A stretch of DNA of 64,000 nt. It comes from Patescibacteria group bacterium. Its GTDB lineage: Bacteria; Patescibacteriota; Patescibacteriia; Magasanikbacterales; GWA2-37-8. The position numbers and the translations under genes were made by a program. The notes beneath the pieces are model-generated. The model was not told where the DNA came from. It ran no database searches and saw nothing but the letters and a program-made list of their open reading frames with translations. The stretch covers positions 62,000-125,999 of the forward strand of contig JBAZKA010000001.1 in the NCBI GenBank assembly GCA_041651015.1. Direction: 5' to 3'. Positions 11,718 to 45,108 of this stretch are shown here, one piece after another; position 1 is the first letter of the stretch; every line of letters starts with the position of its first letter.

Positions 11718-11801
11718 GCGCGGGTGGCGAAACTGGTAGACGCGCTACTTTGAGGTGGTAGTGGACGCAAGTCCTTGGAGGTTCAAATCCTCTCCCGCGC
11801 A
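11718..11801 (+). tRNA. tRNA-Leu (anticodon GAG), type II with long variable arm
   Basis: Acceptor GCGCGGG/CCCGCGC, D-arm GCGAAACTGGTAGACGC, anticodon stem CTACT/GGTAG with loop TTGAGGT (GAG), T-loop TTCAAAT, long variable arm; CCA not encoded. Confidence 0.85.
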
Positions 11802-11805
11802 CAAA

Positions 11806-40467: not shown

Positions 40468-40576
40468 ATTTCTTTGTTAGAAATAATTAACATATCCCTA
40501 TGTTATATAATTCTAACATTTTTGTCAAGAGGGGTGTGGATAAAACAAAAAAGCCCTGATGGGCTATTTATTTTTG

Positions 40577-40650
40577 CGGGTCGGACGGGACTCGAACCCG
40601 CAACTTCCTCCGTGACAGGGAGGTGCTCTAACCAGTTGAACTACCGACCC
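40577..40650 (-). tRNA. tRNA-Asp (anticodon GTC)
   Basis: Sense strand GGGTCGGTAGTTCAACTGGTTAGAGCACCTCCCTGTCACGGAGGAAGTTGCGGGTTCGAGTCCCGTCCGACCCG; anticodon loop CTGTCAC; closely resembles canonical bacterial tRNA-Asp. Confidence 0.85.
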
Positions 40651-40700: not shown

Positions 40701-40772
40701 GACCCAATTGGCAATTCGTGGATAATTATATATGAATTTACTATTTTTGTCAAATCATTATAGCAAACAAAA

Positions 40773-41613: not shown

Positions 41614-42162
41614 TTAGGTTTTGAAAATTGTGGCCGTAATCGTACTACCTTGACGCTCAACTTCCTGATCGTATTTGATGGTAATATCCGCGGTGGCCGA
41701 TTGAATAAATTTTTTGATCATTTCAAAGGCCATGGCTGATTGCTGATTTTCCCGTCCGCGTAAACAAACGTCAACTTTTACTTTGTCTCCGCCGTTCAAA
41801 AAGTTCAAGGTTTGTTTACGGCGAATTTCCATATCATTGGCGCCAATACGTAGAGACAAGCGGACGCATTTTGTCTTGGAGACATGCTGGTGCGCTTTGC
41901 GGATGCGGGAGGCCTTTTCTTGCTGGTATTGGTATTGACCGAAGTTCATGATTTTCGCCACCGGCGGTTCGGTCTTTGGATTGATTTCCACTAAATCCAT
42001 TTCTTGTTCGCGCGCTTTGCGGATCGCTTCGCCGGTCGTCATTACACCCAAACTGGCGCCGGTTGCATCCAAAACTAAAACCTGAAGAGCTTTAATCCCT
42101 TCGTTAAAGAAAAATTCTTTTTTTGGTTCTTCCGGTTTTCTGCGACGATGCGAAATACGCAT
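41614..42162 (-). CDS. infC: Translation initiation factor IF-3
   Basis: 182 aa; IF3 N- and C-domain patterns (EINPKTEPPVAKIMNFGQYQY..., KVKVDVCLRGRE); conserved infC-rpmI-rplT operon order. Confidence 0.9.
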   Translation of the reverse strand: MRISHRRRKPEEPKKEFFFNEGIKALQVLVLDATGASLGVMTTGEAIRKAREQEMDLVEINPKTEPPVAKIMNFGQYQYQQEKASRIRKAHQHVSKTKCVRLSLRIGANDMEIRRKQTLNFLNGGDKVKVDVCLRGRENQQSAMAFEMIKKFIQSATADITIKYDQEVERQGSTITATIFKT

Positions 42163-42167
42163 AAATT

Positions 42168-42258
42168 AGTTTATAAAGTTCATAAAGTTATAAAGTTCAT
42201 AAAGTAATGTGAATTTTGTGAACATAGGGTCGCGAAACTTTACAAACTTTATAAACTT
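42168..42258. repeat. ATAAAGTT-type palindromic repeat array (family copy 2), between the ssrA 3-prime end and the infC start
   Basis: AGTTTATAAAGTTCATAAAGTTATAAAGTTCATAAAGT ... ACTTTACAAACTTTATAAACTT; same family as 22821-22900. Confidence 0.65.
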
Positions 42259-42287
42259 TTTACTTTTAACTTGCCGCGAAGCGGCGG

Positions 42288-42681
42288 TGGAGATGGCGAG
42301 AGTCGAACTCGCGTCCAGATGGCCACGCCACAGCCGTCTACATGCTTAGTTCTCTTATTTTTAACCAAACTGTATTCAGAGAACGAAAATTCGTTTGGCG
42401 TGCCGGCTTTGCCTTTCAATTACTTCACCTCCGGCTCGGTTGGTAATCTACGCCTGATGATTTGCGCCGCGTTTAGTTACCAGGTGTGGCTAAGGCGACG
42501 GAAGCGGCAATTAAGCCGCGACAGGAGCAAAACTCATCGCCGGGCTAAAAGCTCGAGCAATGGATGTTTTGACTTTTGAAAATAAGTTGGCACTTATTAT
42601 TTGGTCCATGTATTTACGAGGGTTGGACCGACCTCGGCATGCGAACTATAACGCCGGTCTCTGTCAAAGCCCGGCATCCCC
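42288..42681 (-). ncRNA. ssrA: tmRNA (ssrA)
   Basis: Minus strand starts GGGGATGCCGGGCTTTGACAGAGACCGG... and ends ...GGACGCGAGTTCGACTCTCGCCATCTCCA (tRNA-like T-arm and acceptor). A candidate tag ORF beginning at nt 91 reads GCC AAC ... GTC GCG GCT TAA (ends ...FAPVAA-stop). Lies 2 nt downstream of the smpB stop. Confidence 0.85.
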
Positions 42682-42682
42682 A

Positions 42683-43126
42683 TTACATATTTTTCAATGT
42701 TCTTTTGACTTCTTTGGCTGAGTCGCGCTTCTTGATTGACTCGCGTTTATCAAATTGCTTCTTACCGCGAGCCACGCCGACCTCAACTTTTACAAAGCGG
42801 TTTTTAGTATACACCTTTAAAGGTACGATTGTCAAGCCCTTTTCTTGTGATTTGGCGCGTAAATAATCAATTTCCTTTTTTTTGAGAAGCAGGCGACGGC
42901 TGTGGGTCGGGTCATAGTCGGGATTGGGGCCGGCCGGCTGATAAGCGCTGATATGGGCGTTGGTGAGCAGGGCGTCGCTCCCGTGAAAGGTGACAAACGA
43001 GCCTTTTAAATTCATATGTCCGGCTTTGGCGGATTTTACTTCGGCGCCGGTCAATACTAAACCCGCTTCCAGTTTTTTCAGAATTTCATAGTCAAAAAAG
43101 GCTTTTTTGTTTTCGGTTAGAGACAT
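42683..43126 (-). CDS. smpB: SsrA-binding protein SmpB
   Basis: 147 aa; conserved SmpB core (NKKAFFDYEI ... GLVLTGAEVKS..., basic C-terminal tail). Confidence 0.9.
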   Translation of the reverse strand: MSLTENKKAFFDYEILKKLEAGLVLTGAEVKSAKAGHMNLKGSFVTFHGSDALLTNAHISAYQPAGPNPDYDPTHSRRLLLKKKEIDYLRAKSQEKGLTIVPLKVYTKNRFVKVEVGVARGKKQFDKRESIKKRDSAKEVKRTLKNM

Positions 43127-43208
43127 AATAAACGAATTTTATCATAATTATTAGCAAAAATCAATCCTATTTATTTATTTTCACTTTTATGCTACATTAT
43201 ATATACTT

Positions 43209-44009
43209 ATGTCTCTTTCAGCGAGAAAATTTTCAGTGCATCCGAAGCTGGCCGCGGCCGTGGATTTATTGTTAAACCTCGGCACGCTTTTATTGTTTCC
43301 CAAATTGACCGGTTGGCAATGGTTCGCCGCTTGGTTTGTGATTCGCGCCGTGCTTTGGGCGCTCTTCATCCGGCTGGTATATTATCCGCCCGAGCTTTCC
43401 CGCTGGCGCCATTTTTGGTCGCTGATATTTTTTAATTTCGGCGTCATTGTCGCGCTGTCAATTTTTATTGAATGGACCGTGGCCTGGTATTTGCTCGCGG
43501 CCGTGTTTGTAATTTTTTCCGCCGCCAGTTTTTGGCTGTTGCCGTCAGGTGAAAGTTTGCTCGCGTTTTATCGCAAACCTTTTCGCCGTTGGTTATTTCT
43601 AATGGACGCATTTGGGTTGGCCGGTTTTTGGTGTGGTATTTTTGCTTTGATGCAATTCCAATTGTGGCAAAATACTTTTTATCCTTTTTTGGAATTTCTC
43701 GGCGCGCTTTTGACCGCGGCCGTGTCGCTTTGGTGGTGGCGCGCTTATGGCATGGAATATTCTCGGCGATTTTGGCTGTCGCTCGCGGTGATTTTTCTTC
43801 TCACCTTTGAACTAGCTTGGATTGTCACCCGTTGGCCGATTGGTTTTATGGTGAGCGGAATGGTAATGATTTGGTTTTGGTATATTTTATGGCTGGTGAT
43901 GAGATTTAATTTATCCAAAGAGGGCATTGATTGGAAAAAGCAAAAATTCTTTTTGGTTTCCAGTGTAATTTTATTTATTTTATTTATGTTACTCGCCCGC
44001 TGGCGATAA
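43209..44009 (+). CDS. Polytopic membrane protein, Trp-rich, about 8 TM helices (hypothetical)
   Basis: 266 aa, highly hydrophobic with many W/F residues; no recognisable catalytic motif. Confidence 0.45.
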   Translation: MSLSARKFSVHPKLAAAVDLLLNLGTLLLFPKLTGWQWFAAWFVIRAVLWALFIRLVYYPPELSRWRHFWSLIFFNFGVIVALSIFIEWTVAWYLLAAVFVIFSAASFWLLPSGESLLAFYRKPFRRWLFLMDAFGLAGFWCGIFALMQFQLWQNTFYPFLEFLGALLTAAVSLWWWRAYGMEYSRRFWLSLAVIFLLTFELAWIVTRWPIGFMVSGMVMIWFWYILWLVMRFNLSKEGIDWKKQKFFLVSSVILFILFMLLARWR

Positions 44010-44016
44010 ATTTACT

Positions 44017-45108
44017 ATGATTCCTCCACATTTACCCAAACCGTCTTGTAATATTGCCGCGCATCAGCGCTGGCTCGGGATTAAAATCATGATGATCGGT
44101 TCCGCTTTTGGTTTGATCGCCGGATTGACCGGCGCGATTATTGTCATTGGTTGGATCTGGCCGGGTTATGGCGGGGGAGACACTTGGGTGGTGTCGCAAA
44201 ATCGTAGCACGGTTTCCTCGGCTTCGCTTGATGAAACGACCAGCCGTGATAGTTCGGATAGAGTGTTTACAATTTATAAAACAACTTCCAAAATAAATGA
44301 ATTGGAATACTTGGCCGCGGAAAATAAATTGGGCGAAGCGGTGGTGATAAGTTCGGACGGCTGGCTCGCGCTGGCGGTAGAAAATAAAAGCGCGTTGACA
44401 AATATTGTCAAAGCTCGCGCTTTAGGTTCTGACGGCGCGGTATTCGCGGTGCAAAAAACAATTTTTGATCCGTATGCAAAAATTTTATATGTCAAAATAA
44501 ATCCGGTCAATCAAGCGGCGGGTGGAACACCGGCCACGCAATTCAGAGTGGCTATCTTTGAAGAAACAATTGCGCCCTATGACCAAATATTTATCCGCGA
44601 GAATAATGAGTGGCGGCAAACCGCGGTGGGGCAAAAACAATCAGACGCCGCGGCGCATTTGGACGGCGCCCCGGGATATTCTTATTCGGTTGACGGACGA
44701 TTTTCCGCCGGTACCGTGGCCATAAACAGCCGTGGGCGAGTAGTTGGCTTAATTGATTCAAGCGGACGTCTTTCACCCAGTATTTTTGTGACGCGCATCA
44801 TGCCGTCCATACTTGGACAGCAAAAAATTTCTTATCCGACTTTTGGCGTCAGCGGTTGGTCATCGGGCGACGCAACGGCCATTGTTTCCAGTTCCGTGGT
44901 TTCCGGCTTTGCGGTAGATGATGTCTGGAGCAAAAAATCCAAATTGAAAAAAGGCGACGTGATTATGGAAATCAACGGGCAAATTGTTCGTGATGAGACA
45001 TTGTGGTATAATATCAGCGGAAAACAAGCGACCGTAACTGTTTGGCGCGGCACTGCGTCTGTGGATTTGATAGTGGATATTTTGGCGGCCGATGCCGGTT
45101 CGTTGTAG
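44017..45108 (+). CDS. Membrane-anchored PDZ-domain protein, HtrA-like but apparently lacking the catalytic serine motif
   Basis: N-terminal TM; ...GTVAINSRGRVVGLI resembles the HtrA substrate-binding loop, but GNSGGPL is replaced by SAGTV; C-terminal PDZ-like GDVIMEINGQIV. Confidence 0.45.
   Translation: MIPPHLPKPSCNIAAHQRWLGIKIMMIGSAFGLIAGLTGAIIVIGWIWPGYGGGDTWVVSQNRSTVSSASLDETTSRDSSDRVFTIYKTTSKINELEYLAAENKLGEAVVISSDGWLALAVENKSALTNIVKARALGSDGAVFAVQKTIFDPYAKILYVKINPVNQAAGGTPATQFRVAIFEETIAPYDQIFIRENNEWRQTAVGQKQSDAAAHLDGAPGYSYSVDGRFSAGTVAINSRGRVVGLIDSSGRLSPSIFVTRIMPSILGQQKISYPTFGVSGWSSGDATAIVSSSVVSGFAVDDVWSKKSKLKKGDVIMEINGQIVRDETLWYNISGKQATVTVWRGTASVDLIVDILAADAGSL

Follow-up and report, generated by a model that had tools for sequence, protein, structure and literature searches.

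The gene pair considered here, smpB and the transfer-messenger RNA (tmRNA) gene ssrA, lies on a 64,000-nt stretch of DNA from a Patescibacteria group bacterium (assembly GCA_041651015.1, contig JBAZKA010000001.1, positions 62,000 to 125,999 of the forward strand), hereafter called the window, and its closest described counterparts are those of Escherichia coli, Carsonella and Mycoplasma. The E. coli ssrA promoter (TGGTCA-18-TATACT) is the strongest site for the RpoD holoenzyme in that genome and is intergenic (PMC3946193). In the survey by Hudson, Lau and Williams (2014) smpB and ssrA were found to overlap only in Carsonella, and the feedback implied by this overlap was pointed out (PMC4131195). 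Published tag peptides are 8-35 residues long (PMC8012679), and the 27-residue tag of M. pneumoniae, in which ClpXP is absent, is read mainly by Lon (PMC8403727); a switch in tag specificity was proposed by Gur and Sauer in 2008, as cited in PMC8403727. Within the tmRNA itself the canonical place of the tag stop codon is the loop of helix 5, and a hairpin known as 'helix m' is weakly supported in E. coli (PMC1168896).

Set beside these systems, the locus in the window is with a probability of about 0.82 a genuine, canonical trans-translation module, in which the SmpB gene is followed 1 nt on by a one-piece tmRNA gene. The features that look odd at first sight, namely a 26-codon tag, a 1-nt junction and the lack of an encoded CCA, are the norm of the lineage and lie inside known ranges. 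An earlier note, made from the letters of the DNA alone, had described a tmRNA gene directly behind smpB with canonical acceptor and T-arm sequences, no encoded CCA and a 26-codon tag frame that starts at nt 91 of the tmRNA and ends in VAA, and had named ARAGORN and the Rfam covariance model (CM) RF00023, run with Infernal, as checks; both programs bore this description out and agreed on the resume codon and the tag.

Using ARAGORN, a one-piece tmRNA, the only tmRNA in the window, was identified at 42286..42681 (-) (coordinates are window positions, with the strand in brackets). The whole RF00023 model (positions 1-374 of 374) aligned to 42285..42681 (-), with a score of 142.7 bits (gathering threshold 47; E 6.5e-56). 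The ssrA gene was therefore placed at 42285..42681 (-), with 396 nt encoded through CC and a G at 42285 in the place of A76. Its 5' acceptor strand (42681..42675 (-)) and 3' acceptor strand (42295..42289 (-)) form the 7-bp stem GGGGAUG/CAUCUCC, which holds a G3.U pair and, together with the discriminator A (42288 (-)) and the T arm GCGAG-UUCGACU-CUCGC (42312..42296 (-)), makes the molecule tRNA-Ala-like. The 3' end reads CAUCUCC-A-CC-G, in which CC (42287..42286 (-)) is encoded and the terminal A of CCA is not. Pseudoknot 1 (PK1; tmRNA nt 44-79, 42603..42638 (-)), built from GCCGAGG/CCUCG and GGUCCA/UGGACC, was located from the CM alignment and the sequence, and an 11-nt spacer, AAAUAAUAAGU, separates it from the resume codon, the same spacing as in E. 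coli tmRNA. The tag frame (42511..42591 (-); tmRNA nt 91-171; ARAGORN and Rfam) opens with GCC at 42591..42589 and runs through 26 codons, encoding ANLFSKVKTSIARAFSPAMSFAPVAA, to a UAA stop at 42513..42511 in the loop of helix 5 (GCGGC-UUAAUU-GCCGC, 42504..42519 (-)), a helix present in both the Rfam alignment and the minimum free energy (MFE) fold. Since the peptide ends in PVAA, GCC stands 11 nt after PK1 and UAA lies in the helix-5 loop, the frame is built as a tmRNA tag frame should be. GCC is also the consensus resume codon in the CM alignment, where the window tmRNA carries, within its reading frame, an insertion of 45 nt relative to the Rfam consensus.

The smpB gene (42683..43126 (-), 147 aa) was taken from the list of open reading frames (ORFs) and assigned with NCBIfam models; it matched TIGR00086 with 170.4 bits (cutoff 119.1) and NF003843 with 177.6 bits (cutoff 130). 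The C-terminal tail of the protein reads GKKQFDKRESIKKRD... and includes the basic tail GKKQFDKRESIKKRDSAKEVKRTLKNM; SmpB homologues carrying PF01668 number 7966. The protein is 95-97% identical to three metagenome proteins (P0001-P0003) and 81% identical to that of L001, a Candidatus Magasanikiibacteriota metagenome-assembled genome (MAG; L numbers denote the sampled loci), and the next tiers of matches come from other Magasanikbacteria and Patescibacteria. The guess that the DNA came from a genome of the Candidate Phyla Radiation (CPR) is borne out by these matches, the best of which belong to Candidatus Magasanikbacteria.

For the comparison of tags, 164 loci encoding SmpB relatives were sampled, and a tmRNA was found downstream of smpB in 145 sequences including that of the window. 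Heuristic tag calls were corrected from ARAGORN or by hand (e.g. L029, L042, L072, L094, L095, L009/L104, and L157). The lengths of the 109 unique tags were bimodal, with 35 tags of 9-17 residues (for example ANLFKTPALAYA) and 74 of 19-28 residues, and the long tags were basic, with a mean net charge of +2 (the tag of the window has +3). This last tag is of a type, ANL[FLY]xK[AV]Kxx.AxAF...FAPxxA, that occurs in loci labelled as Magasanik-, Moranii- and Patescibacteria-group MAGs; related tags of 21-22 residues (ANSLVARVK...) occur in Buchanan- and Doudnabacteria loci, and a second long type, SPYF...DFAFAYA, in Parcubacteria. Long basic tags of 19-28 residues are therefore the majority form among the sampled Patescibacteria. 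The earlier note had called the tag long and atypical, which holds only against model organisms such as E. coli, and the check that it suggested, a comparison with the tags of related CPR genomes, showed a tag of this length to be the usual one. No description of CPR tag lengths turned up in the literature searched, which is not proof of novelty.

ARAGORN detected the tmRNA in 91 of the 145 sequences, and the remainder were recovered solely with the Rfam or nhmmer profile. The program thus missed ~37% of the tmRNAs beside smpB, and for L003, L022, and L114 it gave a tag with a wrong start or in a wrong frame; the loci affected in one way or the other are L003, L006, L008, L012, L013, L017, L022, L114 and about 50 others. 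Lowering its threshold (-ps80) yielded zero extra tmRNA calls. This gap in sensitivity matters for the annotation of CPR genomes.

At the junction of the two genes, between the smpB stop codon TAA (42685..42683) and G1 of the tmRNA at 42681, stands one U (42682 (-)), which would be position -1 of the RNase P site. So tight a junction is not unusual in related Patescibacteria. Among 128 distinct loci the genes overlapped in 16, were separated by 0-2 nt in 17 and by 3-20 nt in 27, so that 60/128 overlapped or lay within 20 nt of each other. In the 16 overlapping CPR loci (L033, L050, L067, L087, L097, L110, L113, L117, L133, L135, L136, L137, L141, L149, L152, and L157) smpB runs into ssrA by 1, 8, 11 or 18 nt; in the common overlaps of 8 nt the smpB stop is a UGA within the tmRNA 5' sequence GGGGGUGA. 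Overlap of smpB and ssrA is evidently recurrent in CPR, in several lineages, and in such loci maturation by RNase P should, judging from the arrangement of the genes, give a non-stop smpB mRNA.

The missing terminal A is likewise shared, as ACCA was encoded in just 21 of 75 related loci. The two tRNA genes in the window, tRNA-Leu(GAG) (11718..11804 (+)) and tRNA-Asp(GUC) (40574..40650 (-)), have CAA in place of CCA after the discriminator, and since ssrA and both tRNAs lack an encoded CCA, its post-transcriptional completion is a general need in this genome. A perfect TTGACA-17-TATAAT was seen at 40753..40725, ~75 nt upstream of tRNA-Asp.

Put together, these features suggest the following course of events. 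RNase P would cut after U(-1) and thereby create the tmRNA 5' end, and through the same cut the smpB mRNA would come to an end 1 nt beyond its stop codon. The tmRNA would be trimmed at its 3' end, A76 would be put on by the CCA-adding enzyme as for tRNA-Leu and tRNA-Asp of the window, and the product would be charged by alanyl-tRNA synthetase. The complex of SmpB and tmRNA would then enter a stalled ribosome, where translation would resume at GCC, and the stalled protein would gain Ala plus 26 residues ending in -FAPVAA before being degraded by some AAA+ protease. If the full tag is made, the tag peptides expected are X-AANLFSK, TSIAR and AFSPAMSFAPVAA.

As to the protease, it is possible, though on balance doubtful, that the long tag represents a switch in specificity as in Mycoplasma, with the basic N-terminal extension directing tagged proteins to FtsH or Lon, or to some adaptor, and not to ClpXP. 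The 27-residue, Lon-read tag of M. pneumoniae is a precedent, and the extension in the window lineage is under stronger constraint at the peptide level than the C-terminal residues (values are given below); because it is under such selection, the extension is probably recognised by something. The long CPR tags are basic while the E. coli tag is acidic, and the C-termini of the relatives' tags vary (ALA, AYA, AFA, ARA, AHA) where a fixed LAA might be looked for. Furthermore, ftsH is the divergent upstream neighbour of smpB-ssrA in ~30 Parcubacteria loci (e.g. L015 2150-3274, L042 2150-3274, L025, L041, L057, and L060). On the other side, ftsH does not adjoin smpB in the window, and the window tag ends in VAA. 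A C-terminal AA fits recognition of the ClpX type. A Clp protease has been predicted in at least one Patescibacterium, TM7x (PMC10768705), and an amphipathic helix in the extension, considered as a possible recognition feature, was rejected on statistical grounds (hydrophobic moment 0.59 vs 0.43 in shuffled sequences, p 0.08; significant in 5 of 74 long tags). The 64-kb window holds no protease gene; a motif scan of its ORFs found none of ClpP, ClpX, Lon and FtsH. When all fetched loci were searched by tblastn with the ClpP, ClpX, Lon and FtsH of E. coli as queries, FtsH was the only one that turned up, and nothing decisive on Clp, Lon or FtsH in CPR was found in the literature searched. Most of the loci with ftsH as a neighbour carry the long SPYF...DFAFAYA type of tag.

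Transcription of ssrA was considered separately. A sigma-70-type promoter sequence was located inside smpB, in the codons for GLTIVPLKVYT (42806..42835 (-)), with the -35 hexamer TTGACA at 42835..42830, a spacer of 18 nt and the -10 hexamer TATACT at 42811..42806; it matches the consensus at 11/12 positions and lies 124 nt upstream of tmRNA G1. In the SmpB motif GLTIVPLKVYTKN the two hexamers serve as the codons for Leu-Thr and Tyr-Thr. Judging from the sequence, ssrA probably has its own promoter here, from which transcription would begin near 42798-42801 and give a leader of ~118 nt. Two routes would then lead to transcription of the gene, read-through from smpB and initiation at the embedded sigma-70 promoter, and RNase P would remove the ~118-nt leader.

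Alternatively, ssrA might lack a promoter of its own and depend on read-through from smpB only, TTGACA-18-TATACT being a by-product of the SmpB motif GLTxVPLxxYxK and of codon bias. The motif does encode conserved SmpB residues and the reading frame fixes the 18-nt spacing; moreover, as there is no room for a terminator between smpB and ssrA, read-through must occur. We nevertheless judge this explanation improbable in view of the way in which the codons behave among the relatives. Of 115 unique loci with ssrA at most 400 nt downstream, 114 had the promoter at these codons, compared with one of 12 loci in which ssrA was absent or distant, the one exception reaching 10/12 (Fisher p 6e-14, with sequences de-duplicated and kinship ignored). 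The Leu codon at the site was TTG in 114/114 cases, compared with 25% of the Leu codons elsewhere in the same genes, and although the residue after Tyr varied (T, N, S, I, A, D, V), its codon ended in T in 114/115. Third codon positions held 1.59 bits of information in the hexamers and 0.40 bits in the spacer, and taken position by position the pattern, T A T A x T, was that of a -10 element. In loci that have the GLT...Y residues but no adjacent ssrA, Leu is encoded by CTC or CTG and the match is lost. In L024 and L124 the smpB motif has been lost (TTGGCG...TTTATA) and ssrA lies 637 nt downstream of smpB; a perfect free-standing TTGACA-17-TATAAT stands there ~516 nt downstream of smpB, and the 121 nt by which it precedes the 5' end of the tmRNA are similar to the distance of the embedded promoters (~124 nt). 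Finally, of the 17 sites in the window that match at 11/12 or better, 14 were intergenic and upstream of genes, so the promoter consensus is meaningful in this organism.

The embedded promoter bears on the statement in the earlier note that the tmRNA must be processed from the smpB transcript. A precursor carrying the 3' part of smpB must indeed be processed at its 5' end, but with a promoter ~124 nt upstream the smpB promoter would not be required. An ssrA promoter that is kept within the codons of SmpB proteins only 45-55% identical would be a clean example of dual coding; no smpB-embedded ssrA promoter was described in the literature searched, which again does not prove novelty. For smpB itself the best candidate in the consensus scan was a weaker promoter-like site, TTGATT-17-TAAAAT (43136..43164 (-); 9/12, with a TG flagged before the -10). 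The -10 of this site stops 10 nt short of the ATG, and a Shine-Dalgarno sequence is not seen; by these signs smpB may have a leaderless or almost leaderless mRNA.

A broader proposal would regard the 3' third of smpB and ssrA as one expression unit, comprising the embedded promoter, an smpB mRNA 3' end set by RNase P at the stop codon or, in the 16 relatives, within it, and a basic tag extension meant for a protease or adaptor other than ClpX-SspB. We put this forward tentatively and consider it rather unlikely as a whole. If true, the synthesis of SmpB would become subject to trans-translation and be held in check by its own product.

The length of the tag could also be apparent only, with translation resuming at an internal codon such as the GCU of ...ARAFSP..., so that the real tag has 10-15 residues and the codons upstream are an untranslated spacer. 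The possibility of a shorter internal resume point had been raised in the earlier note, and ARAGORN itself returned shorter tags for L003 (ARAFSPSLNLAPALV) and L114 (AMAQAFSANFATALA). These shorter tags are mis-starts, because in both loci the frame runs upstream into the same ANLF... sequence; in L003 it extends to ANLFNKVKTSI, and of the nine codons among the first 17 that differ between L003 and the window, eight show synonymous changes. The 26-codon frame is under purifying selection as a peptide over its whole length. In the five tmRNAs with 26-codon tags (window, L081, L001, L003, and L085) variable columns at codon positions 1/2/3 numbered 10/10/21 in the whole frame and 4/4/13 in the first 17 codons, and the mean identity of the peptide was 0.72 in frame compared with 0.47-0.48 in the other two frames. 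The ratio of nonsynonymous to synonymous substitution rates (dN/dS, calculated by NG86) against relatives was 0.1-0.26 over the full frame; in the first 17 codons it was 0.03-0.19, which is as low as for smpB itself and below the value of the last nine codons. Relatives with a 25-codon tag differ from those with 26 codons by one clean 3-nt indel. Among 111 unique related sequences the motif AUAAGU-GCN, which leads up to the resume codon, was kept, position -1 being U in 106, and nt 91 is indicated both by the CM alignment and by the distance of 11 nt from PK1. Conserved RNA structure, which might account for the conservation of codons 5-17, was rejected as an explanation: RNAalifold on 14 relatives gave just the hairpin at the resume codon and a 3-pair stem near the 3' end of the tag, and an MFE hairpin within codons 5-17 was not conserved in the relatives. 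Internal resumption is thus rejected as very improbable.

The hairpin whose loop holds the resume codon (42581..42598 (-); MFE fold and RNAalifold) pairs AAUAAGU (nt 84-90) with ACUUAUU (nt 95-101) around the loop GCCA, and changes on both sides were seen in three of its seven pairs in the RNAalifold consensus of the 14 relatives. The contiguous stem averaged 5.9 bp in 116 unique sequences compared with 3.5 bp in shuffles, and its covarying forms among relatives include AAUACGU/ACGUAUU, GUUAAUU/AAUUGAC and UCAAAUG/CAUUUGG. The first tag codons (ANLF) are so constant partly because this hairpin constrains them.

That this tmRNA copy is decaying or has no function, for example as a fragment left by the integration of an island, has next to no probability: tmRNA genes often serve as integration sites and an AT-rich inverted repeat lies just 3' of ssrA, but the CM match is full-length, the acceptor stem with its G.U is intact, the window holds a single tmRNA copy, and the arrangement and the tag, the latter under purifying selection, are shared with relatives at 69-97% SmpB identity.

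Some points nevertheless weigh against our reading of the locus as a working module with its own ssrA promoter. Although the regions of pseudoknots PK2-PK4 were all aligned by the CM, they contain several non-canonical pairs and have lower posterior probabilities. The transcription start, the RNase P cut, the 3' maturation and the tagging are all drawn from knowledge of the family. The spacer of the embedded promoter is 18 nt, compared with mostly 17 nt in the intergenic promoters of the window, and the contrast between loci with and without an adjacent ssrA is partly confounded with phylogeny, several of the non-adjacent loci not being CPR.

In the DNA that flanks the locus, a short GC hairpin without a U tract, GCCGC-UUC-GCGGC (42273..42285 (-); from folding), starts at the base after the encoded CC. 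Hairpins of other sequence occur at the same position in L082 and L001, and the element may serve in 3' processing or termination. Between ssrA and infC folding revealed an AT-rich inverted repeat of ~90 nt (42168..42257 (-)), made of AAAGUUUAUAAAGUUU-like units; the 161-nt flank that holds it folds with z -4.8, and infC-rpmI-rplT come next. This repeat is not in L082 or L001, while L081 has another AT-rich insert at the same place, and it may represent a terminator or else a small element of the mobile or hairpin kind. A further small hairpin, AUGCGUAUUUCGCAU (42148..42162 (-)), contains the start codon of infC; it is conserved in L081, L082, and L001 and may be relevant to the autoregulation of initiation factor 3. 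On the other side of the locus, two genes upstream of smpB, a 363-aa membrane-anchored protein (44017..45108 (+)) showed only a weak, sub-threshold match to the DegP/HtrA PDZ region (E 2e-4, 20 bits vs a cutoff of 416), and the 266-aa membrane protein next to it (43209..44009) matched no NCBIfam family.

Returning to the described systems, the locus resembles that of Carsonella in that smpB and ssrA are so close that maturation of the tmRNA must set the 3' end of the smpB mRNA. It differs in that the stop codon in the window is intact 1 nt before the cut, so that the mRNA is not strictly non-stop and the SmpB tail is kept; a Carsonella-type arrangement, in which the smpB frame enters ssrA and its stop is removed by cleavage, was found in the 16 related loci and not in the window. 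With the Mycoplasma tags the window tag shares a similar length (27 residues in Mycoplasma), a small, reduced genome and small or hydrophobic ends, but no sequence resemblance to the CPR motif described above was seen. The likeness to E. coli comprises the tRNA-like domain and its G3.U, an Ala resume codon that an 11-nt spacer separates from PK1, the stop in the helix-5 loop, a hydrophobic tag end in AA, smpB immediately upstream, and a 5' end made by RNase P, and the 7-bp hairpin at the resume codon corresponds to E. coli 'helix m'. In contrast to E. coli, the window tag has 26 codons instead of 10 and is basic instead of acidic, the terminal A of CCA is not encoded, and the genes are 1 nt apart, whereas those of E. 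coli are separated by a spacer that holds the ssrA promoter (PMC3946193). The two promoters share the -10 hexamer TATACT and the 18-nt spacer, but what stands between smpB and ssrA in E. coli is here written into the codons of SmpB.

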